Below the pieces are notes generated by a model. The model had not been told where the DNA came from and ran no database searches. It was given only the letters and a program-made list of their open reading frames with translations. The translations under genes were made by a program, and so were the position numbers. Below are positions 12,040 to 39,535 of a stretch of DNA of 64,000 bases, piece after piece (positions within the stretch are counted from its first letter, which is position 1; every line of letters starts with the position of its first letter). The stretch lies in UHGV virus genome UHGV-0076294. One strand, 5' to 3'. This stretch comes from a virus.

Positions 12040-15000
12040 TTAAGATGTAAACATAAGATTGAACTGGAGTTTGTCGATATCTCGAGTTTCAGCCGGATTC
12101 AACGCATCGAACGTAGTTGCCACATAAACCGTTAGCGTACCATCATCATACGAAGATTTCACCGGCGGATTAGTTCCAGTCTGACCATCTCTCACAACGA
12201 GTGCAGGCTCGCTGGGAAGATTATCAAACTGCCCTTTAACCGCTTTGTATACCAAACCGGACTGTGCAGATAACTCCGTGTCTGTGTACACACAGAACGG
12301 TGTATCGATGTCAGCTTGTTTGATAGTGGTACCGGATTCGACATCAATCAACTGTACTGCTCCAAACTTCGTGCGATAACTTTCATATTCGTTCTTCGGA
12401 ATAACAAAAGTAACGTGAACACGAACTTCTTCAGCGGGCTTAAAGCCAGTATGTTCTTTTTCCAAATACTGATTGGCTGATAGCGTCACTTTTTGTTCGG
12501 CCATCGAACCACCTGCCTGATTTATTCCGTACCGGGCTTCAACAATACCGGTTGGTGCAGCAAGTCGCAATTTCAGAGTTCGATTCGCCGTTCCTGGATT
12601 ACCTGGCACTTGAACGCGCAAACTCAATGCTAAGTAAGCATACGTTCCGGTAGTCGGTTTCGTATACGCACCTATCCATTTCATGTTCGCAGACGCTGCC
12701 TGCGAGTTCTCAGAAGCAGTAGCTGTCGCAATGTTAGCAGCTACCGCTTTCTGCCAGAATTGGTCGGCGCAGTTCTCATACGCTACTCTGGCCACGCTCT
12801 TATAACCCGAATACGTTTCCTGGATTGGTATCTTAGGACGCGTCGTGATGCCAGACAATGAACCCCATTTCTGGCCGTCAACATACCCTTCGCCCTTCGA
12901 CGCAGACGCCGTAGGTGCTTTAACGGGCTTGTTAATCAGTGTTAATAGAGGACCCGTCTTTCTGTCGAACGCTGCCGCTACATCGTGTTGGTCGATAATT
13001 GCTGCGTGGTCTTCCAGCTCTTTCACACGACCCAAGCGTTTTACTTTGTCGATACTGATATCAGTAATACGGCTGGAATCGGTGGTTACTGTCCCAACGA
13101 ACAGTCTTGTTGAAGTATCGGCTAACTGCTCCAAACCGATGCGGTATTGCGCGGTAGAACCCGACACCTCAGCGTGCACGTAGAACGTCTGGTTAGCGTG
13201 ATTGGACGGGAACTCGCTGCTTAAATCCACAGACCACGTTGGGAGTGTATAGCTGCTACTACCGAAATCTAACTTGACTTCTTCAGTCAGATACAGAATC
13301 CAACCTTCCGCTGTTTCCACACCGGCGATGATAACAGCCTGACCTCCGGTTGAGAAGGTCGTGTCGTTAACAAACTCTGCGGCTGTATACGCGTTACCTG
13401 AGCAGAAAACGCGGTCAGCTTTAGAGAAAATCAACGCCATCTTGTCCCAGTTACCCGCACCCATATAGCACCCAGATTCTGGGTTATGTGCAGGAGCCAT
13501 CTGTCGTAACTGCGACTTACCAGGAACGCGAGACCAACCTGAACCTGGGTCGTAGGTATACTTCGCGGCGTAACCTAGTGCGTTTAAGTCCCCGATATTT
13601 CGGATAGTTAACGTATAAGGTAGCCAGATACCGAAGTTAGTTCCATCCGCAGAAGCGAAAATAGGCTGTCCGACGCGACGGGTCTTATTACCAGCCTCCT
13701 CTCTTAACGACTGATAACTTAAACCGTAATCTTTATCCAGGAACCAATCCACCAACTTAAAGGTAGCTGAGTTGAACCGTAAGTAGCCATTCTCTTTAGA
13801 TGGACTCACCATGAAGTAATAGATATCAAGAATTCGACGTCCGTTACTTAAGGTTTTCATGCACGAAACTTGCAACAAGTCAAACTCGCACACGGTATTG
13901 ATACCCAACATCCAAAGAGCAAACAAGGCATTACCGGTTTGATGTGCAGCACTAATACGCTCGTTTGCGTATCCGTTCGCTTCACCAGAAGGCGCACCGT
14001 CAACGATCATCTGAATCATTTTCTGACGATCGGTTTCTTCTAACGTTAAGCGTTCAGAAGACAACGCAAAGTTACCGTAGATGTTACGATACGGGAACGT
14101 TTCTGCTTTGGTCAAATACCAACCATTTAATTGACCGTGACGTTCTTCAGGGATCATGCACGCCGCCATACAGCTAAGCTGTTCGTAAAGCGTTGCATCG
14201 ACTTCACGACGGTTGTTATTCGGTCCGTAGCCACTGTAACCCGGAACGTCGTAAGGTTTATTCGGATCAACTTCCACTTCGATGGTATAACGGTTACGTG
14301 GGTTTGACAACCACACCTTATTCGAACCACCAATTCCGACAGGATGAGAAAGACCGATGGTATAAATAGAACCACGACCTTTATCCCAGGTAAACGTTCC
14401 TTCGCCTGAGGTATTGTTTGGGTTATCGTAACGCAGATAATCGAAAAGCTCTTTGCCTTGCGTTCCTTTAATAGAAACGTTAGGCATCTGGTCTGCATCG
14501 TTAATCTGCCAACAGGAAAGCATCATTCCCGTACCGTTGGGTTTAGCATACGTCGCGAAACAACGATTGTTTGCTTGACCACCGCCCCACTTACGGCTGG
14601 TTTCTACAGTTGAACCATCCGCGAAAGAGAGTGTAGTAGCATCAGCCTTGATGGGGAAGCGTTCGCGGCCTTCTAACGTAACCTTGCCCGTCGACGTATC
14701 GATTGTAAAACTTGTTGCCCATTGACGAAAGTTAATTTGTGAGCTGTCAGCCGCTGCAAACCACACAGTAGGCATATGGTTCACACGAATCACGCCGTCG
14801 CGCACTGCACAAGCATGGTTACATTCTGGACCGTGAACAAAGTTGCAACCAATTGTCCATTTAGCCCGTGCTTCCGGCGTCAAATACGTAAAGAACTGAC
14901 CCGTTTGTGACTCTTCGGTTTTCTGGCCAATGCGTAGGCAGAGGTTATCTCCAAATTGTCCCATCTCCCCGTTTAGTGTTACGCGTTCAAACTCCAGCGT

Positions 15001-17223
15001 GGTGCTAGTAGACAAATCGTCCTTACGTAGACGCCAAGCTGCTACTGCGTAAGCAGAGTTATTTACCGTAGAGCGGAGAAGATAAACGTAATCCTCAACC
15101 AACACAACATCATCGGCTTCTGGCCACGGATTCCAGGTTTGTTCCACAGTACCGCTGGGGTTGCCGTTACGGTACACGGGCATCGTAACGCGACATACCA
15201 CCGTGTGTTTAGTGTGATCCATCGAACCATTAAACAACACCAAATAACGGTTATTATCAGAACCCAGACAAATAATCGCTTCCTGACCACCGATCAATAT
15301 AGCTTTCAGGGTCACTTCAGGATATTTACTCATCCCGGCAGGGTGATATTTCACTGAGGTCTGCTGCGGATTTACAAACGCGTTTGACGTGTTAATGTCA
15401 GCATAGCCGTAATAAATGGCTTCTGTACCCGGTACGCCGTTAGAACCGTTACGGAGCGAATAAACCTTACCCTGCTGATACCCAACAACCCCTTTTTGAT
15501 AAGACTGGTTTTTGGTATAACCCGAATAGTTACCTAGCGCTGGGATAGGTAAGAAGTTCTTGTTACCGAACTTCGCACCACCTACCGTCCACGCCGGTAA
15601 GATGGTATTCAGTTTATCAGAGACTTTCTTAATCTCTTTTGCGAACAGCCACCCTTGACGCGACGTGACAGCTTTATCGTTAGTAGTGTCAATCGCATCC
15701 CAGAGCTGCAAGATGCCGTCAACCGTTGCACTACCAATTGGAATGTTAACCAAGTCAGCAGTGGTGTGTGTATGCGTCTTCAAACTCTTGTTTTTCAACA
15801 CGTTCGTTAACGCTTTCGTCACCGGCTTAGCACTTGGCGTGGTGTTATCCATCTTATCGATACCGAAATCGGTTTTCGTTAAGGTTAACACCATACTGTC
15901 GCCTACCTTAACAAACCCTTTACCGTTAACGGTATAGTCATCGTCAACGTACAGGTCCAAGCGGTCTTTTAATTCGGTTACGGCTTTCTGGGAGATAGCA
16001 GTACCTAACGCCGCAGACGTGGAGATATTCGTAATCGAGAACAACCCATAAACTGATTCGGTCGCTGTGGGAATATTCGCGTTTAACGTAACCGGGTTAG
16101 TCTGTTTTGCGGTACCGTACGGTTTTACAGTGTCTGACGCTTTGAAATACGCGTTTGCTTCGAGCAACGTTACTGACGTCAGGTACATGTTCACCATTTC
16201 TGGCGTAACCAGATACACGGAGTTATAAACTGGCGCTAATACATCCTGTTCTGACCCCGAGTGAACCCAAAGCGTATTCAGACCCGCACTGAATTCAACC
16301 GCTAAACCCGATTCGTTGTTGTCCTGGTCTGCTTTAATCACCAACGGTTGTGGCGAGGTAATTAACCACTTATCACCACGAATACTGATGATGTGGCCAC
16401 CTGACGTTTTAAACGTTAATTCATTACTGTTCGTGGTACCCCATCGACCGTAAACGGTGCCGAGGGCTTCACCCATTAACTGGTCAACGTCCGATTGCTC
16501 AATACCCGCTGAACCCATCAGCGTAGCCAACTCGTCAATCGTCAACCCAAACGCTTTTGTAGCGTCAACAGCACGTCCTAATACGGGAAGAGCAGCAATG
16601 TCATCAGTGGTATAATGATGCGCGTTAGGGTTACGGTGATGCTGGTATAATTCTTCGTCGAAAACCTTTTTCCCGTTCTCGTAAATCAGGTTAGTGACTT
16701 CACTGAACGCAGCATCTAACTCCGTAGAACGCTTAATGATTTTCTTGCGAATGTCTTCTAACGCCTTAACAACCTCATCCCTCAGAATCGCTTCTTCTAA
16801 GTTAGCAGGCGGGTCGATAGGCTGAATAACCGGCGCATACGCCATTAGTTCAGACCAGTCCACGTTACGTGGGTCTTTCAGGTCAGTACGAACTAAGAAC
16901 TTCCCGATTTCAGATTGCGGTACACGATATTGACGTGCTACCCCTAAAATCTCATATTCGATTTCTGTTGCAGTAAGCAACATAAACCCGCCGTAAATCT
17001 GATCTTGTTCAGCTTCTGCGAGTTCTTTAAAGTAATAGCCTAAATAGTAGTCCAACCCCTCAATCAGAGTACGACGTCCGTTAGGCGCGGTATCGTCGGC
17101 TACTGTGAGTTTTAATCCGATACGATAAAAAGGTCCTTCAGGTGGAATGACCACGTTAAATCGGTTAGGGTACGTTGCTGTGCTTAGCGTACCGTTAAAC
17201 TGCGCCGCGTCTTCTCTCGGCAT
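12040..17223 (-). CDS. Large structural protein, tail fibre/spike candidate (1727 aa)
   Basis: SD aggagtc; N-terminal module IPPEGPFYRIGLKL...GLDYYL resembles tail-fibre attachment domains; G/S/T/N-rich beta-like composition. Confidence 0.5.
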   Translation of the reverse strand: MPREDAAQFNGTLSTATYPNRFNVVIPPEGPFYRIGLKLTVADDTAPNGRRTLIEGLDYYLGYYFKELAEAEQDQIYGGFMLLTATEIEYEILGVARQYRVPQSEIGKFLVRTDLKDPRNVDWSELMAYAPVIQPIDPPANLEEAILRDEVVKALEDIRKKIIKRSTELDAAFSEVTNLIYENGKKVFDEELYQHHRNPNAHHYTTDDIAALPVLGRAVDATKAFGLTIDELATLMGSAGIEQSDVDQLMGEALGTVYGRWGTTNSNELTFKTSGGHIISIRGDKWLITSPQPLVIKADQDNNESGLAVEFSAGLNTLWVHSGSEQDVLAPVYNSVYLVTPEMVNMYLTSVTLLEANAYFKASDTVKPYGTAKQTNPVTLNANIPTATESVYGLFSITNISTSAALGTAISQKAVTELKDRLDLYVDDDYTVNGKGFVKVGDSMVLTLTKTDFGIDKMDNTTPSAKPVTKALTNVLKNKSLKTHTHTTADLVNIPIGSATVDGILQLWDAIDTTNDKAVTSRQGWLFAKEIKKVSDKLNTILPAWTVGGAKFGNKNFLPIPALGNYSGYTKNQSYQKGVVGYQQGKVYSLRNGSNGVPGTEAIYYGYADINTSNAFVNPQQTSVKYHPAGMSKYPEVTLKAILIGGQEAIICLGSDNNRYLVLFNGSMDHTKHTVVCRVTMPVYRNGNPSGTVEQTWNPWPEADDVVLVEDYVYLLRSTVNNSAYAVAAWRLRKDDLSTSTTLEFERVTLNGEMGQFGDNLCLRIGQKTEESQTGQFFTYLTPEARAKWTIGCNFVHGPECNHACAVRDGVIRVNHMPTVWFAAADSSQINFRQWATSFTIDTSTGKVTLEGRERFPIKADATTLSFADGSTVETSRKWGGGQANNRCFATYAKPNGTGMMLSCWQINDADQMPNVSIKGTQGKELFDYLRYDNPNNTSGEGTFTWDKGRGSIYTIGLSHPVGIGGSNKVWLSNPRNRYTIEVEVDPNKPYDVPGYSGYGPNNNRREVDATLYEQLSCMAACMIPEERHGQLNGWYLTKAETFPYRNIYGNFALSSERLTLEETDRQKMIQMIVDGAPSGEANGYANERISAAHQTGNALFALWMLGINTVCEFDLLQVSCMKTLSNGRRILDIYYFMVSPSKENGYLRFNSATFKLVDWFLDKDYGLSYQSLREEAGNKTRRVGQPIFASADGTNFGIWLPYTLTIRNIGDLNALGYAAKYTYDPGSGWSRVPGKSQLRQMAPAHNPESGCYMGAGNWDKMALIFSKADRVFCSGNAYTAAEFVNDTTFSTGGQAVIIAGVETAEGWILYLTEEVKLDFGSSSYTLPTWSVDLSSEFPSNHANQTFYVHAEVSGSTAQYRIGLEQLADTSTRLFVGTVTTDSSRITDISIDKVKRLGRVKELEDHAAIIDQHDVAAAFDRKTGPLLTLINKPVKAPTASASKGEGYVDGQKWGSLSGITTRPKIPIQETYSGYKSVARVAYENCADQFWQKAVAANIATATASENSQAASANMKWIGAYTKPTTGTYAYLALSLRVQVPGNPGTANRTLKLRLAAPTGIVEARYGINQAGGSMAEQKVTLSANQYLEKEHTGFKPAEEVRVHVTFVIPKNEYESYRTKFGAVQLIDVESGTTIKQADIDTPFCVYTDTELSAQSGLVYKAVKGQFDNLPSEPALVVRDGQTGTNPPVKSSYDDGTLTVYVATTFDALNPAETRDIDKLQFNLMFTS

Positions 17224-17239
17224 CGTAAAGACTCCTACT

Positions 17240-17280
17240 TTTTAAATAAAATGGATACCCCTCCCCATTACAGGGAGGGG
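17240..17280 (-). terminator. Hairpin terminator between large fibre genes (minus strand)
   Basis: cccctcccc-attaca-gggagggg; minus strand tail T-rich. Confidence 0.55.
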
Positions 17281-17318
17281 TTACCTACGGACACACAACT
17301 GCCCGCAGGCAGCCTGTC

Positions 17319-20300
17319 CTAAGTACGATCCCCTAACTGCTTCCCGTTAAGTTCTCGTTTCAGTACAGAAAGTATCCATTTCCACGCTTTACTCGTGATA
17401 TGGTACGGATTCCGTTTCTCCATTAAGAACTGCTTTTCACCGCTACGCAGTTCGAAGCTCTGCGCATTAAGGTAGTCCTGACGATAGATTTTCTCATCAA
17501 AAACTTCCAATGAACAGGTAAAGTTAAGTTCGTACCCTTCAGGATTATTACCTGGTGGTTCTAAGACAATATAAATGTCCTGACCTACGCGTAAATCCCT
17601 TGGAGTGATGGTAATCGCTTTACCTACATCAGCGCTTGTTGACAGTGCAAACTCCGCACTATCGGTGGACGCTAAGTACGGGTCTTTCCCTGCATCGCCT
17701 ATAATTACCTTACCCGGCCAGTTGCACTTCACCGTCCCGGACACCTTTGCAATCCGATATTGTTGTCTCTCAACACCTTGTGCAAAACGGAGAATGAGTT
17801 TGTGACGATAACGACTTGCAGCGGCTTTAGTCGTACTCCACTCATTGTTCCAGGAGGTATGAAGTTCATTTTTCTTGGCCATTAATGCGCCACGAGACAG
17901 CTTACGTGGGAAGAATTGTGCTGGTAATTGCCCATCGTGGGAGGTCGCCACTCCCCCTTGTCCGGTTGGAAGTGCTATTGTTTCCGTAGGACAATAACTT
18001 AACTCGTACTCGTATGTTGCAGGATCGATCAATTTCTGATAGTAATCGCCGTCCTTACTGTTTGCTAACCAACCAACGGAAGAGTCCATATACGATTCAA
18101 ACAGTGAACGTAAATAATGATACTTATCAATATCGATATTACCCGTTTTTGGATCAATCAGCGCATGGTTAATAGTGAGGAGACACTTTTCACTCAAACC
18201 TTTAAACGCTAAACCCACTCCATCGCCGGTAAAGTAGTCTACCAGGTCAAATGGAAACGCCATCTCTATTTGTCGCAAGTCGATAGTCGTTGAACCAAAC
18301 TGCGAAAAAGATAGTGCTAATCGAAGTACACGAGTATTAACGTTATAACGATAACGAATCATCCCACGTGGCGCATGGTTAGCGGAGATCTTATCACCGC
18401 TTGGTCCCCAGCCAATTAAGTCGAGTATTTCGGCATTCGTTACTTCTCCATTAAACAAAACGTCTTTAGTCGTGACTTCAACCGATGTTTCCCTTCCGGC
18501 ATCCATTAACATCGAACCGTTATTCAACTCGAAGTTCTTAAGCCAGACTTCTGAAGTCGAACCGGCACCTACGCCCACCTTACAAGTTTTACTAGTAAGG
18601 TTAATACGCACATAACGACGTCCCGCCGTACCGCCCTGCGAGCTTGCACACAAAATAAGATCAGGTGCCGCAGACAGTGCCTTGGTCCCTCCAATGTCGT
18701 CGACATCGAAAACGAATGAGCCTTCGAACGTTGGTGCGTTATTTTCCTTCGGGTTAAATGGCGTAAACCAACAATAAGGCGTCGCACCCTCGGTTGAGAA
18801 AATCAACTCTAAGTCAGTTTTAACATTTAATCCGTGGGAATAAGAGAAAAGTCCCCGACTTAAGGTACAAAGCGTACCGCCACTTCCGCTACCTAACATT
18901 TTTCGATAAACTAAGGCACGTGGTTCAGCAATAGCGCGATTTAACAACGGCAGTCGTGGGTTATCCGTTAACGTCCAGTCGACAGAGCTGAGTCCGTGTG
19001 CCTTGCGAGTACCAATGTGTTCACTAACCTCGGCACTTTTCCCGAAATCGAACGTGGTTTCAAATCTCACGGTTTTATTCGCGTAGGATGATACACCCGC
19101 AACAATATCAACATAGCCGATATAACCACGCTCAGGATCGACCTCAAATCCTTGAACTGGTTCAGCACGCGAATACAAAGAGCCTGTGAGCATGTTAACG
19201 TACAGATAATGACGAATCCCTACATGCGTTGTAACAAACTCCTGAAGAAGCTCTACGCGCGTTTCAGGGCCACTGAAGTAAACAGGATAGTCACCATCGT
19301 AAACTTCAAATTGTACAGCTGCCGATTTTGCAGTATCGCTACATTCTGCTTTAACAGCAATTGTGTAGTTTTCAACATCTGGAGACGTTCCATAGTTCAT
19401 TAACAATGGCGACTCACCAGTAGCACCCACAACACCATTTACATAAACGGTTATTGTCCCACCGCCAGCGGCATAAACAAACAGCCTTTTCTGATGGGCT
19501 TTGACGCGCGTTTTAGCCAGCACCGATACAACGGACTGATCGCCCATCTGCGTAGCGCTTTTACCTACCGGAACTGACTGAAACCCCATTATTGGAGGAT
19601 CAACAATTCCATCCCAACTAATCCCGGTACCTTTACTAACCTTACCCGTAGGCCAAGTCAGTTCAAGCTGGTTATTCGGTGAGAACCAGTTAAACATTGG
19701 GGTAGTTTGCAGGTCAATCGCACCGGTAACGGTACTGTCGCCTTTCATACCGTTCAGCAAATAGAAACATTTCAAATCCTGAACAGAAATTGCAGTACCC
19801 TGGCTATTGAAACGCCAGTCTGCGCCTTTCACAGCAGCGAAATCCGTTACTGTTCCTTCTTTCGCGTTTGCTATCGCAGCAGCCACCACATCTAAACGGG
19901 CTGAAAGCTCTTTTAAGATGTCCGGTACAACCGCACGGTTCTCAACCAACCCGTTCTGGTTAGATGCATAACGACCAATACCGTAAATCGACTGCGAGGC
20001 TTTATAAATGCCTAACTCTGACCAGTCGTGGTGGTGACCGACATCTGCTAAACCACTAACCGATATATTCAGTTCAGTAGACAACGGTTTGTCGAGGTCT
20101 GCGGTGTTATCCGCTTGCCCTAATCCCAGGTCAGCTTTCGTGATCGTCCTGGAGCCGTCGTTCATTGACTTACCGTTAATCATGGTCGTTTTAGTCACGT
20201 ACCCTGATAAGTCGGTTGAATATGGCGTTAGTGACGCAGGGGTTGCTGCAACCCCAACCGTTTCTGTGCCTTTACCGGTTTTAAGTTTAACGACACCTTT

Positions 20301-21524
20301 TTCAGTGGTTGACGCTTTCGTCGGGTCGATAGCCCCCACGATAGGATCGGCTCGAGAACCTTTACCAGTGAAACTGATCCCATTACGGCCTTCGATATAC
20401 ACTTTGGAGTCATCAGGGTCGCTACCGCCACCAGAACCCGCATCCGGGTCTTGTTGGTATTCCATAAGTGCGGTGGTGGTCAGTAACGGGTTACCGTTTA
20501 GGGTGAGTTTGTTCATCCCTAAAGCATCTCCCGTTGACTCGATGCGTAACGTGTTTTTACCAGCACGCCAGTTAATGTAACGTCCCGCATCAGTGCCTTC
20601 CAGATGCCCTACCGCTAATACCACAGAACCATCGGATTTTAACGTAAAGCCGTCATTTGCAAAAACGATTTCTGACTCGCCGTTTTTTGAACGGAACTGT
20701 GCGCGGTTTCCTGACACCGTACAGTTAAACACACCCTGTACTTCCGAAGAAATCCAGTGGGAGATATACGTGTCGATAACCGACTGTGGCAAACGAAACG
20801 CTTTCAGTTCTTCCGTTAACGCTTTCAATTTTAACCCGTACGCCATAAAGGTGTCAGGTGTTTTCAGGTCAACGGGATGTGCATTAATTTGTGCGCTCGT
20901 GGTTTCGTGCGGGTTCGTCGCGGCGATATGTGCTGGGTAGTTAAACGCCTCGATTTCTTTACCCAACGCAGTCACTAGCGCTTTAACTTCGGCTAATTTA
21001 TCTTTAATTAGCTGGTTAGCGTCATCGGTTTTCAACTCAATATCGTGAATCGCTGACGCTAAGTATTTTTTGTTCAGCAAATCCGCCCAGGACGTTGCCG
21101 CAGGCGTAGCTGGGTATAACGACGGTCTACCGTCTAACAACAGCCAGTCTACACTGACTGGGTTATTCAAATATTTCACCAACTCGTCGAGCATGTCAAC
21201 GAACGGGTCGTAGAACGTACCGCCGAGCATTTGTCCTTCAAAGGTTACAATACCTTTAATGGATGGGTTGATAAGGTGTACCCCACAATACACGTTGGCT
21301 GCTACCGAGTCATCCAGTTCTGTCAGTTGGTATTGCAGTTCGTAGTCCACCCCACGACTTAGTGGGGTGGTTGAACCCGGTTGTCTGACGACCAAATCTT
21401 CAAAGAACGGGCGATGGTCTAAAATCACCACCCGATCGTTGTTGTTTTCTGACCCGATGATACGCTCCTCTAAGAAGTGATTCTCGGTTTTCGTCCCCCG
21501 AGGATCGTAAGGATACGCTTTCAT
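17319..21524 (-). CDS. Large structural protein, tail fibre/spike candidate (about 1400 aa)
   Basis: SD ggaga before ATG at 21524; N-terminal module LDHRPFFEDLVV...GVDYEL shared with neighbours. Confidence 0.5.
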   Translation of the reverse strand: MKAYPYDPRGTKTENHFLEERIIGSENNNDRVVILDHRPFFEDLVVRQPGSTTPLSRGVDYELQYQLTELDDSVAANVYCGVHLINPSIKGIVTFEGQMLGGTFYDPFVDMLDELVKYLNNPVSVDWLLLDGRPSLYPATPAATSWADLLNKKYLASAIHDIELKTDDANQLIKDKLAEVKALVTALGKEIEAFNYPAHIAATNPHETTSAQINAHPVDLKTPDTFMAYGLKLKALTEELKAFRLPQSVIDTYISHWISSEVQGVFNCTVSGNRAQFRSKNGESEIVFANDGFTLKSDGSVVLAVGHLEGTDAGRYINWRAGKNTLRIESTGDALGMNKLTLNGNPLLTTTALMEYQQDPDAGSGGGSDPDDSKVYIEGRNGISFTGKGSRADPIVGAIDPTKASTTEKGVVKLKTGKGTETVGVAATPASLTPYSTDLSGYVTKTTMINGKSMNDGSRTITKADLGLGQADNTADLDKPLSTELNISVSGLADVGHHHDWSELGIYKASQSIYGIGRYASNQNGLVENRAVVPDILKELSARLDVVAAAIANAKEGTVTDFAAVKGADWRFNSQGTAISVQDLKCFYLLNGMKGDSTVTGAIDLQTTPMFNWFSPNNQLELTWPTGKVSKGTGISWDGIVDPPIMGFQSVPVGKSATQMGDQSVVSVLAKTRVKAHQKRLFVYAAGGGTITVYVNGVVGATGESPLLMNYGTSPDVENYTIAVKAECSDTAKSAAVQFEVYDGDYPVYFSGPETRVELLQEFVTTHVGIRHYLYVNMLTGSLYSRAEPVQGFEVDPERGYIGYVDIVAGVSSYANKTVRFETTFDFGKSAEVSEHIGTRKAHGLSSVDWTLTDNPRLPLLNRAIAEPRALVYRKMLGSGSGGTLCTLSRGLFSYSHGLNVKTDLELIFSTEGATPYCWFTPFNPKENNAPTFEGSFVFDVDDIGGTKALSAAPDLILCASSQGGTAGRRYVRINLTSKTCKVGVGAGSTSEVWLKNFELNNGSMLMDAGRETSVEVTTKDVLFNGEVTNAEILDLIGWGPSGDKISANHAPRGMIRYRYNVNTRVLRLALSFSQFGSTTIDLRQIEMAFPFDLVDYFTGDGVGLAFKGLSEKCLLTINHALIDPKTGNIDIDKYHYLRSLFESYMDSSVGWLANSKDGDYYQKLIDPATYEYELSYCPTETIALPTGQGGVATSHDGQLPAQFFPRKLSRGALMAKKNELHTSWNNEWSTTKAAASRYRHKLILRFAQGVERQQYRIAKVSGTVKCNWPGKVIIGDAGKDPYLASTDSAEFALSTSADVGKAITITPRDLRVGQDIYIVLEPPGNNPEGYELNFTCSLEVFDEKIYRQDYLNAQSFELRSGEKQFLMEKRNPYHITSKAWKWILSVLKRELNGKQLGDRT

Positions 21525-21537
21525 CAAAAAAATCTCC

Positions 21538-24500
21538 TTAATCGCGAATGATTACCGCCTGCACTTTATTGCTGGTGTCGATAAACGACATTACGCGCTC
21601 CTTATTAAGATAAGGAGGTATCGGTAACGCAGCATAATCCGCCAGGTTGTTATTAAATTCAGTTGCCACTAACGCATTAAGCGTTTCGGGGTCTGAACTG
21701 GCACCGGCCAATTCCATAACGCGCACACGATTTAATGAGGAATAGTTGCTAATATAGTCCAACAACGTACCATAGACTTTATTCGCAGTTGCACTGTCTC
21801 CCGCAGAACGGACGTCGGCACGGACCTCATCCTCATAAAGTCCCCCTAAACCGTAGTAAATAGGGGTATACGGATCGTTAACGATAGGTTCAATATTGAA
21901 GCCAGTTAAACGGTCGGTTAATGGGATTTTCTGCGTAGTTCCCCCTGCTGCCGTACAGCTTACATATTTGTCCGTCGCAGATAAATGCACCCCGACAGTA
22001 TACGCAGTCCCCGCTAAGGTCAGTCTTGCACTAAACGTTATTGCGTTGGTTGCACTACGGGTGTGGGTAAATGATACTACAGGTTGTAATGAACTCCACG
22101 GTGCAGGTGTAACACGTTTCGTTGGTGTGAAACCTAACACTACTGATTTCCCGCTACCGAAGTTCAAACCGAACCCTGCGTAACAATACTCACCGTTACT
22201 GTCAGTTAAACGATATCCGCGAGTGATAAGTAACGACAACCGCATAAACTCGCCATCGGTGTTTTTCCAACAACCTAAAATGGTTTCTAACACCGTGCCG
22301 GTTTTTGCGTTGCTTTCTGTTTCCCAACTTACCCGCATTCCTGCGTTCTTAAAAGCTGGGAACATGTTGTGGATAAACCCGTGAACGTTATCGCTTACCC
22401 CTTTCGCATCAAACACCCACTTCGACGCAAGCTGATCGTATTTCACACCATCGAGTGCTTTATATCCACCGCCAACCACATAACGCCAATCTGCCTCGCC
22501 ACGCACAACCGCTTGAAGTCCAGAAGCCCAGCAGGGCGCACCTACTGTTAAATTGCTTAACCCCAGCACTGCACGCGGAGCAGAACGCTGAATATGTGCG
22601 TTGTCATTAGCGACGTGGTCTTTCAGCTCACGGAAATCGCCTAACCGTGTCACGTTTCGGAGTTCCACTACGTCAACTTGGGAAAGTTCGTTAACAATAA
22701 GCTTCCCAACACGCGTCATGGTGTCGGTTTCAGCTTGATTGTAACTATCGTGGACGATATACATTGCTCTATTGTCGACGATATCAACAAAGATCCCTGC
22801 GTGGATTAACGTTTGTGGGTTTGTGAAACGTTCGGTAACGTTAACCGTCATTAACGGTACGTCATACGTCTCACCACCAACGAAATACGTTGAAGCGGGG
22901 AGTGTAAGCAGAATGTTATCCTTAACGGTAACGTCAATTAAGTCGTTACCGGACTTACCAAAGCGAATAATGTCAACGCGAGCACCCGAGTCAACGCCAC
23001 CGACGGTATTCTCCAAATCTTCAATCTGGGAAGTCTGCGCCATCACCACACTACCATCGAGTGCTAAAGTGGCATCATCCACTTCCAGACCGAATTTAAT
23101 CAGACCCCGTTTCGTGGTGTCTGCGTTCGCAACACCGAATACGGAAGACGGGTGTTGGTGAACCTTCGGTGAGTATTTGTCCAGCTCGGTCTGCTGTGCA
23201 ACAGAAATCGGTAAGTCAACGTCCGGGGTATTCGCAACGTTACCTAAACCAAAGGTAATTTTGTCGATAGTAACCGAACTGGTAAGCTGCATGTCGTTGA
23301 TGTACGACTTGGCGGCAACTAACTTACCGGTAAACTCTGCGTCCAGTTTTTCAATTAACGCAGGGGTTGCTGCGAGGTTTTCAGCCGTACCGAATTCGTC
23401 CGTTAACTGCCAGCAGGCTAACGTCGTGACGTCGTTGGCAACCGGAAGGATAAACGTTGCGACAAACGGCGACGCTTTAATCCCGCTACCAGTAAGTTCC
23501 ACTGTAGCTGTAGATGCACCGTAGAATAATCCCGTGCCGCCTGCGGTATTACCCGGCAAATACGGCGCTACCGTAGTGGGGTCTAAGAGTTTCTTACCAC
23601 GCCACAATAATCCACGATCATCAGGGTATAGCACAAGCTGGTTATCGCCCGCCTGTAACGTTACCGGGTTGTTACCCACGTTAACGTCAGTAGAACCTTG
23701 ACCGATGAACTTAATGGATTTCGGATCAACGACAAACTGGGCACCTAAACGTGTCTCGTCAACAACATCAGGTGCTTTCTTAATGGTAACCGTGTTACCT
23801 TTGTTTTGCGAACTAATGGTGACAGCATCAGCAACGTTGTTAATCCACGTTTTAAAATGATATTGATTTTCCAACGCTTCTAGCGCAGAATCCATGTTAT
23901 CAAAATTAATTCTGGCACTGTAAGTTTTACCGTTTACCGTAACGACAGCATCGAACACGTTCCCCGTGCGCTTCAACTGGAAACGTAATGAGAAATCGCT
24001 GTTAGGTATTGCCGGATCAGGAGCTTGAGAAATATACCTTACCTGCGGAACTGTACCAACAGTATTAAGGCTTAGCGAAACTTCAATAGAGATAGTATCG
24101 CCCCAGATTCCGGCTTTTATCTCGACAAACTTGCCAGCGTTTGTGCCCGAGTTCTCGTAAAACCGCATAATCGCGGAACCGACCGCCTCATTACCCGACG
24201 CAGTTTTTATACCAGTGGCAATAAAGTCAATATCTTGCAGGTTAGCGGGTACCGCATTAAAAGAAGCACTAAATCCATTCTTCGTTCCTGTGTAACGAAG
24301 CTCGCCGTGATACCTGTGACCACTACTAACATAGCTTTCGCTAAAATAAGGGCTCACGTATTTAGACATCGAAACCGGATCAACTTCTGTCGTGAACGAA
24401 GTAAAACCGGGCAGCGTTCCAATGGTTCCGTCGGCCGTTTTCGTAGTTGACGTGCGCAGTAGTTTCTTTTGCGCAGTCAATGTTTCTTGCGTTGGATACT

Positions 24501-25863
24501 TAGCATTAACATAATCTGTTAACTGCGGCTTCGTTTTTCCGTAAGCTAACGCTGTATCCGTCGCAATACCGTTCAACTCTAACGCACGGATCGGGCCCCA
24601 CGTGTCGCTATGCGGATTGTCCTTACGTGTAACGTGTTCGTGCGCAGGTGCGTTGCGATAGAGCTGTTCTACTAACTGATGGTACTTAACGATTAGCTGA
24701 TAAACGTCGTTACTTACGTCTGCTTCTGGCGCACCAGGTAACGCAAGGAATTGAGCGTAATCGTTTTCAGCCGCCCACCAGTTTAAGTTAACGTTGGTTT
24801 TGTATTTCAGCCACTTCGCAACATCCGTTTTGGTGTAACCTGCTGAGAATTCGTCTGGCGGTGTGTCAACGTTAAAGGTGTAGTCCATAGACTGTTTGTT
24901 GGTCTTCACCTCGATAACGTATACACCGTTACCCGGTTGACGAACAACGCTAAACGTTAACTCGCCTTTTAATTCATCGTCGGTCAAACCGTTGATTAAC
25001 GTATAATCATAATCAGTTGAACCGCTGCCTAACGCAACCGTCAGTCGTAGGCCGATTTTACGTTGTTTTAATTGGAGACGAAGGATACTTGCGCCACCGT
25101 TCGCGTAGCACAACATCCAATCGATTTGTTCGTTCGGATTAATACTCCCCATGTTCGGAAAAATAGCCGGGATACGGTATTTCATCGACAGGGAATATTC
25201 ATTTAACGTGGTGGTTTTGTACGTAACGGAGAAACGACGTTTAGCGGTATTGTAAGTATACCCACCTTTGTTGTCGTACGTTGCGTACTGTTCAGACGTG
25301 ATAACCGTACCATTAGCGCGATGCTCGATATCTAACGTGTTACGCGCAATCGGGTCTACCCGATTCACCACGTTACCTAACGAATCACCTAAGCCTGCAA
25401 TGGCTTGCATTAATTCCAGTTCACCTTTCCAGTTTTCCCAGTCGAACTGAATGTCGACCGGTGGAAAGTAAACATCGCCGATAACGGTATCCCATTGACA
25501 CGCAGACGGGTATTTATCTTTATTGAGTTCGCGTTCTGCGGTAATCTGTTCTTGGGTCGCTTCACCGCAACCTACGGCGTGGTAATCTACCGTGAAATTC
25601 GATTTGTATTTGTCGTTAACAATCCAAATCATCCCGTGCACGAGGTAGGCTGTGCGCAACATACCGGTCTCGTACGGGTGTGTAATAACGTAATCGTCGC
25701 CTAAGGTCAGTATTTTGCCGCCGCTCTTGACCACCAGGGATGTGGTGAAAAAAGGGGCGTGGGCAGGTACCAACATTCGGTACTTCGTACCAATGACGGC
25801 GACCGCTTCACCGGTTATTTTATTCCCCGGTTCTTTGAAGTGTGGGTCTAGGACGACAGCCAT
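21538..25863 (-). CDS. Large structural protein, tail fibre/spike candidate (1441 aa)
   Basis: SD aggagtag; N-terminal module PAHAPFFTTSLVV...GDDYVI shared with neighbours. Confidence 0.5.
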   Translation of the reverse strand: MAVVLDPHFKEPGNKITGEAVAVIGTKYRMLVPAHAPFFTTSLVVKSGGKILTLGDDYVITHPYETGMLRTAYLVHGMIWIVNDKYKSNFTVDYHAVGCGEATQEQITAERELNKDKYPSACQWDTVIGDVYFPPVDIQFDWENWKGELELMQAIAGLGDSLGNVVNRVDPIARNTLDIEHRANGTVITSEQYATYDNKGGYTYNTAKRRFSVTYKTTTLNEYSLSMKYRIPAIFPNMGSINPNEQIDWMLCYANGGASILRLQLKQRKIGLRLTVALGSGSTDYDYTLINGLTDDELKGELTFSVVRQPGNGVYVIEVKTNKQSMDYTFNVDTPPDEFSAGYTKTDVAKWLKYKTNVNLNWWAAENDYAQFLALPGAPEADVSNDVYQLIVKYHQLVEQLYRNAPAHEHVTRKDNPHSDTWGPIRALELNGIATDTALAYGKTKPQLTDYVNAKYPTQETLTAQKKLLRTSTTKTADGTIGTLPGFTSFTTEVDPVSMSKYVSPYFSESYVSSGHRYHGELRYTGTKNGFSASFNAVPANLQDIDFIATGIKTASGNEAVGSAIMRFYENSGTNAGKFVEIKAGIWGDTISIEVSLSLNTVGTVPQVRYISQAPDPAIPNSDFSLRFQLKRTGNVFDAVVTVNGKTYSARINFDNMDSALEALENQYHFKTWINNVADAVTISSQNKGNTVTIKKAPDVVDETRLGAQFVVDPKSIKFIGQGSTDVNVGNNPVTLQAGDNQLVLYPDDRGLLWRGKKLLDPTTVAPYLPGNTAGGTGLFYGASTATVELTGSGIKASPFVATFILPVANDVTTLACWQLTDEFGTAENLAATPALIEKLDAEFTGKLVAAKSYINDMQLTSSVTIDKITFGLGNVANTPDVDLPISVAQQTELDKYSPKVHQHPSSVFGVANADTTKRGLIKFGLEVDDATLALDGSVVMAQTSQIEDLENTVGGVDSGARVDIIRFGKSGNDLIDVTVKDNILLTLPASTYFVGGETYDVPLMTVNVTERFTNPQTLIHAGIFVDIVDNRAMYIVHDSYNQAETDTMTRVGKLIVNELSQVDVVELRNVTRLGDFRELKDHVANDNAHIQRSAPRAVLGLSNLTVGAPCWASGLQAVVRGEADWRYVVGGGYKALDGVKYDQLASKWVFDAKGVSDNVHGFIHNMFPAFKNAGMRVSWETESNAKTGTVLETILGCWKNTDGEFMRLSLLITRGYRLTDSNGEYCYAGFGLNFGSGKSVVLGFTPTKRVTPAPWSSLQPVVSFTHTRSATNAITFSARLTLAGTAYTVGVHLSATDKYVSCTAAGGTTQKIPLTDRLTGFNIEPIVNDPYTPIYYGLGGLYEDEVRADVRSAGDSATANKVYGTLLDYISNYSSLNRVRVMELAGASSDPETLNALVATEFNNNLADYAALPIPPYLNKERVMSFIDTSNKVQAVIIRD

Positions 25864-25930: not shown

Positions 25931-27193
25931 GTGACTACTGCTTATCAAGTACGGCCTGACAGCGCTTTTGGCTTCTCTCGAGAGACCCGTACCTGGGGAG
26001 CCATCGACGTCACGCAACCCTTAGAAACCTTGTGTTCTGATTACCATATTTTCGAAGTCGGTCTGAGTGCGCTTGGTAAAGACTATACGTTAATTAGCCA
26101 ATATCACCTCGCTGACTTACAAAACCGTACCGATACGTTACAAGACTGGCTGAATGAAAAAGCCGGTGTGGTTATCTCTGCGTTGAAAGACGGTTTACCG
26201 ACGTTAGAGTTTGATTGGGCACACTACCAATCGATTAATGCTGATGTTCCAGTAGAAACCTACCTGTGTCCTCACGGTTATCACTACAGTCAAGATTTCA
26301 GTATAGACGATGCTGACGACGTTGTGATTGTTTGCGAAGATAAATGGAGAGACAAATACCGTAACGGGGTGTTGTACAACATCAACGGACAATGGGTACC
26401 ACATCAGTCGGATACTGTTGGTGTACGTTTACCGGGTGCGGGTAAGATAGTACGTCGTGCAGGGACACCGGATATCGGGTGCATGGTCTTTAGTAAATTG
26501 GGGAATGTTAAAACGTACCCCATTGCTAATTTGACCTTAAACAAACTCGACACCACCCGTGACTATTATTCCACGTTAATGATTTCTTTACCGGAATCTA
26601 TTACGGGTAAAACCGTGGGGTTTGTTATCGGGGGTCTGATACACTGGTTACCGGTTACTGGGTACTTCTCCGACAAAGCCATTATGGTCTCGTTACCGAA
26701 CTTTGACGTTGCGCGTACTGTGCTAGAAACCCGACGTTATTACGACTGGGATAGCATCGGCGTTGGCGATCTGTCATCCCCGACCAGCGTACAGCGTATC
26801 CGCAACCCAGAAACGTTAAAGGCGCTTTTAACCCACGAGTCGTCGTTTATCTTTACGGTGGATAATCCGTATCTGGAAGAAGAAGTTGTGGGGGTTTCTC
26901 ACAACGCTATCTGGGGACGTTTATACCTTAAAGATCCTAATGATCCTGATGGGGAAAAACAACTGGGCTATCTGTTAAACCGCTTCGGTAAAACCGTTGC
27001 TTATTGGCCGACGTGGGAAGAAGGGGAATGGGTATTTAACACCACGGAATTCGACAGTCAAAACTACGTGTTCCGTGAAGCCCGCTGGTATAACCAGAAG
27101 AAAATTAACGATGCACAGGCAATCGTAGGGCCTTTCGGTCCCTGGGAAAAAGTCTATTTGGAAATGCATCGTTTCCGTGCAAGAAAAAAATAA
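25931..27193 (+). CDS. Hypothetical protein
   Basis: ORF track start 25715 lies inside the divergent fibre gene; GTG at 25931 with SD gaggaaaagag is the likely start; followed by strong terminator. Confidence 0.45.
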   Translation: MTTAYQVRPDSAFGFSRETRTWGAIDVTQPLETLCSDYHIFEVGLSALGKDYTLISQYHLADLQNRTDTLQDWLNEKAGVVISALKDGLPTLEFDWAHYQSINADVPVETYLCPHGYHYSQDFSIDDADDVVIVCEDKWRDKYRNGVLYNINGQWVPHQSDTVGVRLPGAGKIVRRAGTPDIGCMVFSKLGNVKTYPIANLTLNKLDTTRDYYSTLMISLPESITGKTVGFVIGGLIHWLPVTGYFSDKAIMVSLPNFDVARTVLETRRYYDWDSIGVGDLSSPTSVQRIRNPETLKALLTHESSFIFTVDNPYLEEEVVGVSHNAIWGRLYLKDPNDPDGEKQLGYLLNRFGKTVAYWPTWEEGEWVFNTTEFDSQNYVFREARWYNQKKINDAQAIVGPFGPWEKVYLEMHRFRARKK

Positions 27194-27197
27194 GTAA

Positions 27198-27240
27198 CCT
27201 CCTACCCTCTAAGAGGGTAGGAGTAGCACGTTTTTTTTTT
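27198..27240. terminator. Bidirectional terminator
   Basis: tcctaccctc-taa-gagggtagga followed by T10. Confidence 0.7.
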
Positions 27241-27243
27241 CAC

Positions 27244-27453
27244 TTAGTCTTTTTTGTAGACGATCGCGTTACCGTGCAGTTTGTTGTTACCGGAAATACC
27301 GATAACTTTAAACGCTTCACCGCCGATCTTTTCAGCTTCGACAGCCAGCTTAGCAGTAACGTCGTCTACGGTGTCACCGAAAGCGCTTACGTTACCGATT
27401 TTCTTGAACTCTTCAGGAATGTGTTCAGCAGAAGAGAATTCTTTAATAGCCAT
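27244..27453 (-). CDS. DUF1471 (YdgH/BhsA/McbA-like) small protein lacking a signal peptide
   Basis: IGNVSAFGDTVDDVTAKLAVEAEKIGGEAFKVIGISGNNKLHGNAIVYK closely follows the BhsA-family pattern (GTISA...LHGTAVIYK); SD ggagag. Confidence 0.7.
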   Translation of the reverse strand: MAIKEFSSAEHIPEEFKKIGNVSAFGDTVDDVTAKLAVEAEKIGGEAFKVIGISGNNKLHGNAIVYKKD

Positions 27454-27512
27454 AGCTACTCTCCAGTTAAAGAAAGGAAGGACTGTATCGTGTTACAACC
27501 AAAGCATAAGAT

Positions 27513-27537
27513 AGCTCCTCCCGGAAGGGAGGAGTAG
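27513..27537. other. GC-rich hairpin without U-tract
   Basis: ctcctccc-ggaa-gggaggag between DUF1471 gene and 27654-28619. Confidence 0.35.
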
Positions 27538-27653
27538 AGTGCGCGAAAAAAAGTGGCCTGCTTAACTAAACGATGAGGTTTAAGAAAAGTGTTGATAAGA
27601 AGCTTACCAACGTCAGGTCACAATATATAATACCAACGTAAGAAAAAGGGGAA

Positions 27654-28619
27654 TTATTGTGGTGGTGAAGTTGGGCCATGCTTGCCTTGGTGAATGTGTA
27701 CACTGAAGGTAATACCGGAAATCACCGCATCCTTAACTGTAAAGACACCCACACCTTCACCCGTACCACCGTATTTGAAGTTCTTAGCAACTTCCAAATT
27801 ACCGGTGAACATCGCTTCATTACCTTCTTGCTTAAAGTTCGGCGTTTTATACGTTGTGGAACCGGAGGCTTCGGTTAGCCATGTTTCTGTTTTAAAGGTA
27901 ACCGATTTCGACGCTTCAGTATTCCGAACTTCGCATTTCTCATTAATCGTTTTCGTTTCCAGGTTAATCGAACGTTTTGCGTAAATGAACGCATCTTCTT
28001 TGTTGATGTTCACTTTCGAAAGCATCGCGTTCTCAAAACCTAAATCGTCTTCCACCGAGTTAATGTAATACTTATTCCCTTTATGGTCAACGCACTGCCA
28101 CGATCCGTTAGCGTTATCGAATTGGAATAACCACGCCGCTTTCTCCCCGTTCACCATACTTGTTCTTAGCGTAACGTGTTTGTCAATCGTTGAGACGTTT
28201 AACACATACGCGTTCGACAAGTCATCCGCCATCTGGTTTTCAGGGTCAGCCGACCACGCGTAAACCGCATCTTCTAATCGCTTAACGTTAGCGAAGTTCA
28301 GATCAATCCAAAAATAAATATCCGTTTTCCCCAAACGTAACAAGATAACGTAATCTTCTCGTTTAACGTCAGGGGAATTAATTCGATTGGAGTTAAACTT
28401 CCACCACTTTGCCGTTATCGTGTTACCCGTCTTAATGGTTAGGTTATCTGTTGCACCAGATGTTTCATGCGTCTTTTCAGTTGCTGAAGAAACAGATTGT
28501 ACCACGGTAGGGTTAGCAAAGTTGGTTTCAATTGGTATCACTTTTACCCGATCTGTACCACGGGGTTTGTCTTCCGCGACGATACCAATTGAGAAAAAAT
28601 CAACGCTGGATTTCTCCAT
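27654..28619 (-). CDS. Hypothetical protein (possible baseplate/spike-associated; His-rich C-terminus)
   Basis: 321-aa beta-rich ORF; C-terminal GITFSVHIHQGKHG; functional assignment speculative. Confidence 0.4.
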   Translation of the reverse strand: MEKSSVDFFSIGIVAEDKPRGTDRVKVIPIETNFANPTVVQSVSSATEKTHETSGATDNLTIKTGNTITAKWWKFNSNRINSPDVKREDYVILLRLGKTDIYFWIDLNFANVKRLEDAVYAWSADPENQMADDLSNAYVLNVSTIDKHVTLRTSMVNGEKAAWLFQFDNANGSWQCVDHKGNKYYINSVEDDLGFENAMLSKVNINKEDAFIYAKRSINLETKTINEKCEVRNTEASKSVTFKTETWLTEASGSTTYKTPNFKQEGNEAMFTGNLEVAKNFKYGGTGEGVGVFTVKDAVISGITFSVHIHQGKHGPTSPPQ

Positions 28620-28647
28620 TAGGTCGTTCCTTAGATCGGAAATGTAA

Positions 28648-28670
28648 TCAGATATATTTTACTTAGGTGA
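28648..28670 (+). promoter_or_regulatory. Conserved intergenic motif cAGATATATTTTACTTAGGTGAG (candidate phage promoter)
   Basis: Near-identical copy at 32954-32976; related copies upstream of other plus-strand genes. Confidence 0.4.
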
Positions 28671-28673
28671 GTA

Positions 28674-28697
28674 GGGGCTGAAGTGCGAATTCAGCCC
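28674..28697 (+). other. Hairpin immediately downstream of candidate promoter motif
   Basis: ggggctgaa-gtgcg-ttcagcccc. Confidence 0.35.
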
Positions 28698-28926
28698 CTA
28701 TAGGCACGTTTCTTTTCGAAACGGATACTAACAATAGCGGAGGCTACCATGCTTGCTGAACAGAAAGACGGTATCGAAGAGGTAGTGAGACTCTTCCGTC
28801 ACTATTCACCTTATCTACCACGGTAATCATAGTATTACTTAAAATTTACAGATTGTCCCTTTATTCTGCTACTCGGGATACCGGTAGGGGGTAGGGGGCA
28901 ATCTGTATACGGATATAAATAGCGGA

Positions 28927-28943
28927 GGTATACGTAGTATACC
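28927..28943. promoter_or_regulatory. Inverted repeat ggtatac-gta-gtatacc (operator-like) upstream of 29005 gene
   Basis: 7-bp arms, 3-nt spacer, read directly. Confidence 0.3.
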
Positions 28944-29004
28944 GACATACTCTTCCCAGAGGAACGTAGTGACTTCCTTATTCCTTTTTAGGAGAATAAA
29001 CCCC

Positions 29005-39217: not shown

Positions 39218-39324
39218 TTGAGGGTATTCTGTTAACACTTGGGTCGTTGTGGATTATTGGGAAATCCCTCAACTGGCTGATTAATAAGTACGGATGGGCT
39301 TTCAAAGGCTCTACGCACAGTTAA
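39214..39324 (+). CDS. Small hydrophobic peptide candidate (36 aa; not in ORF track)
   Basis: SD ggaggg 5 nt before ATG; ATGA overlap with previous ORF; MIEGILLTLGSLWIIGKSLNWL...; followed by hairpin. Confidence 0.35.
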   Translation: MIEGILLTLGSLWIIGKSLNWLINKYGWAFKGSTHS

Positions 39325-39331
39325 GTTAGGA

Positions 39332-39360
39332 CCCCCTCCTGGGTAACTGGGAGGGTGTTT
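39332..39360 (+). terminator. Hairpin terminator
   Basis: ccctcc...ggaggg followed by tgtttt. Confidence 0.45.
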
Positions 39361-39374
39361 TACGAGGGAAAACC

Positions 39375-39503
39375 ATGACTGTTGTCAATACTACCAATGC
39401 TGCAATTGGCGCTTTATACAACGCGGAACTAACATGGGGTGCGGGTTTTATTACCGTACTACTTCTTGCCGCAGCCGCTTTTATCATTGGACGTTGGTTT
39501 TAA
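39375..39503 (+). CDS. Small membrane peptide candidate (42 aa; not in ORF track)
   Basis: SD gaggga; MTVVNTTNAAIGALYNAELTWGAGFITVLLLAAAAFIIGRWF has a clear TM segment. Confidence 0.35.
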   Translation: MTVVNTTNAAIGALYNAELTWGAGFITVLLLAAAAFIIGRWF

Positions 39504-39535
39504 TTTCATCTTTTTGCGTCTGTAAGGTCTGATAA

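Follow-up and report, generated by a model that had tools for sequence, protein, structure and literature searches.

A signal-less DUF1471 gene in the tail module of an SPN3US-like jumbo phage and the possible routes of its product to the host envelope

Proteins with a DUF1471 domain are limited to Enterobacterales, and predicted periplasmic signal sequences are common to them (PMC11705850). A phage gene for such a domain that has no export signal raises the question of where its product acts and how it gets there. A gene of this kind occurs in UHGV virus genome UHGV-0076294, of which a stretch of 64,000 nucleotides (nt), hereafter called the window, was analyzed; it is an open reading frame (ORF) of 69 amino acids (aa) on the minus strand at 27244..27453 (ATG start, stop codon included). 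Comparison with other phages revealed that SPN3US-like jumbo phages (Seoul-, Erskine-, Derbicus-, and Wellington-virus) share a clade-specific accessory gene, of which the ORF is the copy carried here. We infer, tentatively, that its product may retain an envelope-directed activity and may be brought to the envelope by the phage, at least in part at the tail side of the virion.

Identity of the ORF and absence of an export signal

An earlier sequence-only reading of this locus had recognized a BhsA-type DUF1471 pattern in the ORF, and this assignment was borne out by profile and structure comparisons. In a Pfam scan, the ORF matched PF07338 (YdgH_BhsA-like, formerly DUF1471) with 40.3 bits (E = 3.4e-10; gathering score, 27 bits), residues 17 to 67 aligning with profile positions 2 to 55 of 55; this was the sole hit, and no match to the PAAR family was obtained at E values up to 1. 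The NCBIfam models for BhsA, YbiJ, YahO, McbA, and YhcN aligned with the ORF through their mature parts only (profile positions ~30 to 86), and its scores lay far under the equivalog cutoff of every one of these models, as for the BhsA equivalog NF047859, where it reached 47.4 bits versus a curated cutoff of 90 over profile positions 30 to 85 only. Moreover, an AlphaFold2 model made from an alignment of 37 sequences (predicted local distance difference test score, pLDDT, 86.5) had a beta-beta-alpha-beta-beta topology, and its best Foldseek matches were 4evu (YdgH-C), 2ma8 (SrfN), 2jna (STM0082), and 2noc (YahO), with template modeling (TM) scores of 0.63 to 0.73, so that the protein is predicted to have the DUF1471 fold. 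The protein is identical to RefSeq entry WP_079772428.1, titled "DUF1471 domain-containing protein," and matches the phrog_8068 profile end to end (residues 1 to 69 with positions 1 to 70 of 70; E = 1.1e-31). The identity of the ORF is settled: it encodes a DUF1471 domain protein without a signal, belonging to the gp172/phrog_8068 family, which is named here after the SPN3US homologue. With the bacterial DUF1471/YhcN family (BhsA/YcfR, McbA, YbiJ, YahO, SrfN, and YdgH) it has in common the domain profile, the fold, and the signature G-N-N-x-L-H-G-x-A...Y-K of the C-terminal strands, but it differs from these proteins in lacking a Sec signal peptide and in being encoded within a tail-gene module.

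The absence of a signal peptide was judged from the upstream codons, hydropathy, charge, and alignment. An in-frame stop lies 14 codons upstream of the start, with no ATG, GTG, or TTG between them, and the ORF therefore cannot be extended upstream, as the same reading had noted. A hydrophobic core is lacking at the N-terminus (MAIKEFSSAEHIPEEFKK), where the Kyte-Doolittle mean over 9 residues peaks at 0.52 compared with 2.3 to 2.9 for bacterial homologues, and the first 20 residues carry a net charge of -1. In a joint alignment, the phage DUF1471 proteins start roughly at the signal-peptide cleavage region of the bacterial ones. An exhaustive hidden Markov model (HMM) search of 1.84 billion representatives gave 40 matches, among which four clusters had no signal peptide and a phage-type N-terminus, while the others inspected had typical signal peptides. 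Two matches of 56 to 57 aa that lack the entire N-terminus are probably truncated gene calls and, these aside, only the phage-type sequences among the matches inspected lack the signal. The exhaustive search was needed, as a word-indexed protein search recovered just four relatives. That the family is normally enterobacterial and periplasmic, as the sequence-only reading had stated, agrees with both the literature (PMC11705850) and the signal peptides of the bacterial homologues. The function of YdgH requires periplasmic localization, a signal-less YdgH construct being nonfunctional in the cytoplasm and giving no complementation, and isolated DUF1471 domains are monomers (PMC11705850).

The homologue with proteomic data is SPN3US gp172 (SPN3US_0172, AEP84005.1), which, like the ORF, is 69 aa long, occupies the slot between gp173 and gp171, has no signal peptide, and carries the PF07338 domain (43.5 bits), but which is only 43% identical to it and represents a different allele type (type B, versus type A in the window; described below). 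In CsCl-purified wild-type SPN3US virions, gp172 was detected with 4 unique peptides, 6 spectra, and 81% coverage, and the authors reported it as a low-abundance protein of unknown function, the smallest in the virion, and left its status open (PMC5694885). It was later labeled "Tail" on the basis of a tailless mutant (PMC7411985 Table S2). In the literature searched, there was no paper linking gp172 to DUF1471, to a missing signal peptide, or to cassette exchange, and searches on jumbo or Erwinia phages combined with BhsA or "multiple stress resistance protein" found nothing.

Distribution, allele types, and duplication of the gene

A tblastn search recovered the DUF1471 protein in 30 phage records at the threshold used, with Erwinia, Salmonella, and Cronobacter as hosts, and several phage records already annotate it as DUF1471/BhsA-like. 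More divergent copies, all above the Pfam threshold, occupy the same slot in SPN3US (gp172), SPLA1a, Phobos, and pEa_SNUABM_38. The order of elements is invariant, comprising the spike gene, a spacer of 200 to 310 nt, a DUF1471 gene of 67 to 73 aa, a bidirectional terminator, and a convergent gp171-like gene; this synteny was seen in SPAsTU, phiEaH2, CR5, SNUABM29, SPLA1a, Phobos, SPN3US, SNUABM38, and Wellington, and the same slot is kept across Seoulvirus, Erskinevirus, Derbicusvirus, and Wellingtonvirus. No gene fills it in Ea35-70, Joad, and Vibrio phage Yong MS32, where the convergent gene directly follows the spike gene, and in phiKZ it holds the PAAR-like gene gp163.1 instead. Thus, the DUF1471 gene is a clade-specific insertion. 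Like it, phiKZ gp163.1 is a small gene directly downstream of the central-spike gene (gp164) and ahead of a convergent structural gene, but the two are unrelated in sequence and fold. The idea that the 69-aa protein replaces the phiKZ PAAR tip was considered and rejected, given this unrelated fold and the Mu gp45-like apex of the spike encoded here; since the spike of the window's clade owns an HxH apex, which phiKZ gp164 lacks, the DUF1471 gene need not substitute for PAAR.

All phages carrying the gene infect Enterobacterales, and no close relative is encoded in the 185,579 species-representative bacterial genomes scanned. Considering that the domain family is limited to Enterobacterales, that its members bear periplasmic signals, and that the phage clade infects Enterobacterales, ancestral capture from a host is a sound inference. 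The ancestor may have captured an enterobacterial DUF1471 (BhsA/McbA/YbiJ-like) gene, of which only the mature domain would have been retained. The gene had been proposed to be a host-derived moron; host origin and a moron-like architecture are reasonable for such a self-contained insertion, but the gene is neither recent nor isolated, being a conserved member of phrog_8068. In common with phage morons in the sense of Hendrix and Juhala, it is an extra gene between conserved neighbors with its own terminator and a promoter-like element; unlike them, it has a non-temperate jumbo carrier, its promoter-like element is of the phage RNA polymerase (RNAP) type rather than the sigma-70 type, its conservation is ancient, and its product turns up in preparations of virions.

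Pairwise ratios of nonsynonymous to synonymous substitution rates (dN/dS) among close homologues were 0.09 to 0.18, corresponding to purifying selection, and the gene is therefore functional. Three deeply diverged allele types, about 40 to 48% identical to one another, were distinguished, with the window phage, SPAsTU, and phiEaH2 carrying type A, SPN3US and SNUABM29 type B, and CR5, Phobos, and SNUABM38 type C. Between SPAsTU and SNUABM29, identity is 82% for the spike and 89% for gp171 but drops to 41% for the DUF1471 protein, whereas SPAsTU and phiEaH2 have 88% identity in the latter and only 71% in the spike. This sharp allelic break, which is confined to the DUF1471 gene, implies recombinational cassette replacement between lineages. 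In Erwinia phage Wellington and in Kwan, the slot holds two tandem DUF1471 copies (1801-2647 in the Wellington record) of 73 aa and 186 aa, both without a signal peptide, the second and longer one consisting of the DUF1471 domain followed by an acidic, low-complexity, apparently disordered tail of ~120 aa. Wellington-like phages also have a 52-aa ORF between the first DUF1471 copy and the spike gene. This pattern of swapping and duplication is typical of an accessory module facing a variable external partner and atypical of a tightly fitted structural subunit.

Neighboring genes and transcription signals

The sequence-only reading had placed the gene alone on the opposite strand, which did not hold, since the upstream neighbor (27654..28619) is also on the minus strand and the odd one is the convergent gene at 25931..27193 on the plus strand. 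The upstream neighbor encodes the central tail spike or puncturing device, a homologue of SPN3US gp173; the protein matches phrog_3216 and is an architectural chimera, residues 4 to 259 matching phiKZ gp164 (PDB 6orj) and the C-terminal 55 aa (residues 266 to 320) matching the Mu gp45 apex domain. An ITFxxHxH motif in this apex, kept in all SPN3US-like relatives, is likely metal binding. The convergent gene (420 aa, GTG start) has its SPN3US homologue in gp171, which is tail associated and essential (PMC5105663). Three consecutive giant genes of 1727, 1402, and 1441 aa on the minus strand (12040-25863) are mutual paralogues with PHROG matches in common and correspond to SPN3US paralogue family C (gp168-170), whose members are thought to be proteins of the baseplate or fibers. 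With homologues of gp168-171 and gp173 as neighbors, the DUF1471 gene thus lies inside the tail, baseplate, and fiber module. Elsewhere in the window, two noncoding gaps are of unusual length, namely the 349-nt divergent spacer upstream of the spike gene (28620-28968), which contains a GC hairpin, and a 318-nt gap (39218-39535), which contains a short ORF for a hydrophobic peptide (MTVVNTTNAAIGALYNAELTWGAGFITVLLLAAAAFIIGRWF).

The window belongs to a phiKZ-related, Seoul-like (SPN3US/phiEaH2-like), nucleus-forming jumbo phage of about 222 to 225 kb. The nearest deposited phage DNA is that of phiEaH2, with only 76% identity over part of the region, and no close isolate was found in the phage collection searched. 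Near-identical copies are present as ~222-kb circular "plasmids" of the urinary E. coli isolate 98232 (95.7%; NZ_CP173450.1) and of Enterobacter ludwigii 51A:C from a gull (97.6%; NZ_CP134650.1), as well as in metagenomic contigs of 221 to 225 kb, and public assemblies contain the exact 69-aa protein in 1836 indexed blocks. The phage and its "plasmid" copies fit the persistent Seoul-like cluster, which comprises non-temperate yet persistent chimalliviruses (10.1101/2024.12.31.630880).

The DUF1471 gene probably forms a transcription unit separate from that of the preceding spike gene, and the two hairpins that had been described as insulating it are both present. An 8-bp GC hairpin (CTCCTCCC-TTCC-GGGAGGAG; 27515..27534, minus strand; -15.8 kcal/mol, z = -2.7) probably marks the end of the spike-gene transcript; hairpins of other sequence are found at this position in phiEaH2, SNUABM29, and SPAsTU, and none is found in SPN3US. 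Downstream of the gene, an 11-bp hairpin at 27199..27223, with A10 (27231-27240) to one side and a T-run (27184-27190) to the other, forms a bidirectional intrinsic terminator; it folds equally well on either strand (-21.8 kcal/mol; z = -3.5 and -5.2). This terminator is common to the DUF1471 gene and the convergent gp171-like gene and is kept in all relatives. An Rfam scan of 27100-29000 gave a sub-threshold PyrG-leader match on the terminator hairpin (31.8 versus 65 bits, E = 0.08), which was taken as chance.

On the upstream side, a Shine-Dalgarno sequence, GGAGAG (27459..27464, minus strand), is located 5 nt from the ATG and is kept as TGGAGA/TGAGGA in all relatives compared. A TATGC motif (27504..27508, minus strand) is a putative promoter, with G27505 as candidate transcription start and a resulting 5' untranslated region (UTR) of 52 nt; TATGC is kept in 8 of 8 phages compared, 50 to 58 nt upstream of the DUF1471 ATG, in a spacer that is otherwise poorly conserved. 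In phiKZ, the nonvirion phage RNAP uses late promoters whose indispensable core is TATG, the G being +1, and transcription in phiKZ-type phages is carried out by their own RNAPs (PMC4666361). Regarding a promoter of its own, a point that the sequence-only reading had raised, no sigma-70-like promoter facing the gene was found on the gene's strand, and the conserved phiKZ-type motif suggests that the gene is transcribed by the phage's own RNAP from TATGC rather than by the host sigma-70 RNAP. Translation would then take place in the cytoplasm during the middle or late phase. Among the 15 intergenic TATG motifs in the window, 14 lie upstream of a gene in sense orientation, orientation being informative for only 5 of these 14 (those in unidirectional gaps), and in the four divergent gaps TATG is present on 7 of 8 sides.

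Four relatives (SPN3US-type) have AATTTAC at about -26 to -20, which resembles the phiKZ middle-promoter element. In the window, the GC hairpin directly adjoins TATGC, so that AATTTAC is missing, and in both features the locus differs from that of SPN3US gp172. A conserved CCACTTTTTTT block (27546..27556, minus strand) is unique in the window and invariant in five type A/B phages, the spacer being otherwise variable. Directly after the spike stop codon lies a second conserved promoter-like block (27616-27653, minus strand), with CTTAC (27642-27638), 12 nt, and TATTG (27625-27621), the distance from the C of CTTAC to the G of TATTG being 16 nt; the relatives have ATTTAC followed by TAATG, TAGTG, or TATG, and in SPN3US the G comes 17 nt after the C of ATTTAC. 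This block could be the start of a short transcript ending at the GC hairpin or the source of a long leader. The composite TTTAC-N13-20-TRTG, which occurs twice in the relatives' spacers, showed no enrichment in the window (14 found versus 13.4 expected). A conserved structured RNA in the spike-to-DUF1471 spacer (160 to 200 nt, five phages) was considered and rejected, as RNAalifold backed the hairpin only (-3.4 kcal/mol, with a positive covariation term).

How the protein may reach the envelope

The domain family is envelope active and the phage protein has no Sec route, and it is therefore proposed that the protein leaves the cell with the phage. Made in the cytoplasm, it would exit together with the phage, at least part of it riding on the virion at its tail side, as has been reported for SPN3US gp172, and on reaching the outer membrane or periplasm of the following host cell it may serve as a small envelope-binding module during adsorption and penetration. 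The swapping of alleles as a cassette points to a host component, rather than a neighboring virion protein, as the partner of the protein. More specifically, and in our view rather doubtfully, the protein might be a tail-delivered periplasmic effector that sits on or near the spike, is deposited in the periplasm or outer membrane at tail contraction, and mimics or competes with host DUF1471 stress proteins. Altered envelope permeability or stress signaling would in that case favor genome entry or persistent nonlethal infection, and the diverged, swappable alleles together with the Wellington duplication would represent adaptation to different host envelope targets.

Several observations weigh against delivery with the virion as the favored reading. 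In nine SPN3US preparations, spectral counts were 6, 3, 0, 2, 13, 0, 0, 0, and 0 for gp172, 8, 0, 17, 0, 0, 0, 3, 27, and 26 for the spike gp173, and 35, 4, 36, 0, 6, 2, 23, 39, and 39 for gp171 (PMC7411985 Table S2); gp172 does not track the tail proteins, peaks in a crude debris pellet (13), and is missing from three purified tail-containing samples. The authors mention that so small a protein (7 kDa) may be lost from gels, a possible artifact. The "Tail" label amounts to nondetection of a low-abundance 7-kDa protein in tailless heads, and the status of gp172 was called unresolved by its own authors (PMC5694885). Considering the erratic counts and the possible loss of small proteins, the virion association of gp172 is reported but not secure. 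Moreover, a PDB sequence search returned no virion or baseplate chain homologous to the 69-aa protein, a spike partner would not usually be monomeric, as isolated DUF1471 domains are (PMC11705850), the allele types vary independently of the spike and gp171, and the second copy in Wellington-like phages, with its disordered tail, resembles an evolving accessory factor more than a fixed component of the structure. As for the expression that this reading assumes, TATG is not enriched in the intergenic DNA of the window overall (15 observed versus 14.2 expected), so that only its orientation and cross-phage conservation are suggestive, and promoter use of TATGC in SPN3US-like phages remains putative.

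The main alternative is a nonstructural protein, abundant in the cytoplasm in the middle or late phase (an assembly chaperone of the spike or gp171, or a persistent-infection factor), that contaminates virion preparations, an explanation we hold to be quite possible but less likely than delivery with the virion. It accommodates the highest abundance of gp172 in the crude pellet, with 13 peptide-spectrum matches (PSM) for a 7-kDa protein, and its erratic detection in purified particles, including 2 PSM in a "heads" sample. The promoter-like motif, strong Shine-Dalgarno sequence, 5' UTR hairpin in relatives, and strong terminator point the same way, a clade-limited, swappable, and duplicable cassette is typical of accessory genes, and a persistence factor would suit a phage that occurs as a ~222-kb "plasmid" in E. 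coli and Enterobacter and belongs to the persistent Seoul-like cluster (10.1101/2024.12.31.630880). However, the 81% coverage of gp172 was obtained in CsCl-purified wild-type virions, no cytoplasmic partner is known for any DUF1471 domain, signal-less YdgH gave no complementation (PMC11705850), and the lack of co-variation of allele type with the spike or gp171 is contrary to what might be expected of a dedicated chaperone.

The debris-rich differential-centrifugation pellet, in which gp172 is enriched, would likewise suit a protein that is released at lysis and binds envelope debris or neighboring cells through an ancestral envelope-binding activity, without virion attachment; candidate effects are receptor masking that spares the progeny from debris and an altered surface of uninfected siblings. 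Lysis is one of only two exits for a signal-less protein, the family is envelope associated, and the allelic diversification is compatible with a variable host-surface target. Nevertheless, we regard this explanation, in which binding to envelope debris is wholly conjectural, as unlikely, given that the pellet also held proheads and tails and that dilution after lysis makes an extracellular soluble 7-kDa factor inefficient. More improbable still is a classical moron that benefits the host by acting in the cytoplasm on stress resistance or biofilm formation, which is the role in host stress or biofilm physiology that the sequence-only reading had suggested and that we do not favor. Such a moron would agree with an extra gene that has its own terminator and promoter-like element and is absent from related phages, and persistence of the phage in bacterial isolates makes a carrier-cell phenotype conceivable; against it stand the lack of a sigma-70-like promoter in a phage type that uses its own RNAPs (PMC4666361), the non-temperate nature of the phage, the need for the periplasm in the one DUF1471 protein tested (PMC11705850), and the presence of the SPN3US homologue in virion preparations. 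Both release at lysis and a cytoplasmic moron are thus rated below the abundant cytoplasmic protein and below delivery with the phage.

Parts of this picture were already known, the protein being present in RefSeq and PHROGs, phage records being annotated as DUF1471/BhsA-like, and proteomic data being available for the SPN3US homologue; the present finding ties together the DUF1471 annotation (GenBank/RefSeq), the virion proteomics of gp172, and the absence of a signal peptide. The DUF1471 gene is a real but largely ordinary accessory gene. If its product does work from the virion, the phage would have re-routed a periplasmic host domain, with the export signal deleted and delivery made via the tail, and this would provide a first functional handle on SPN3US gp172 and on the DUF1471 family, which is poorly understood. 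Seoul-like jumbo phages, which persist in clinical isolates of Enterobacterales, are under consideration for therapeutic use, and a host-envelope-directed accessory gene could therefore bear on their host range or persistence.

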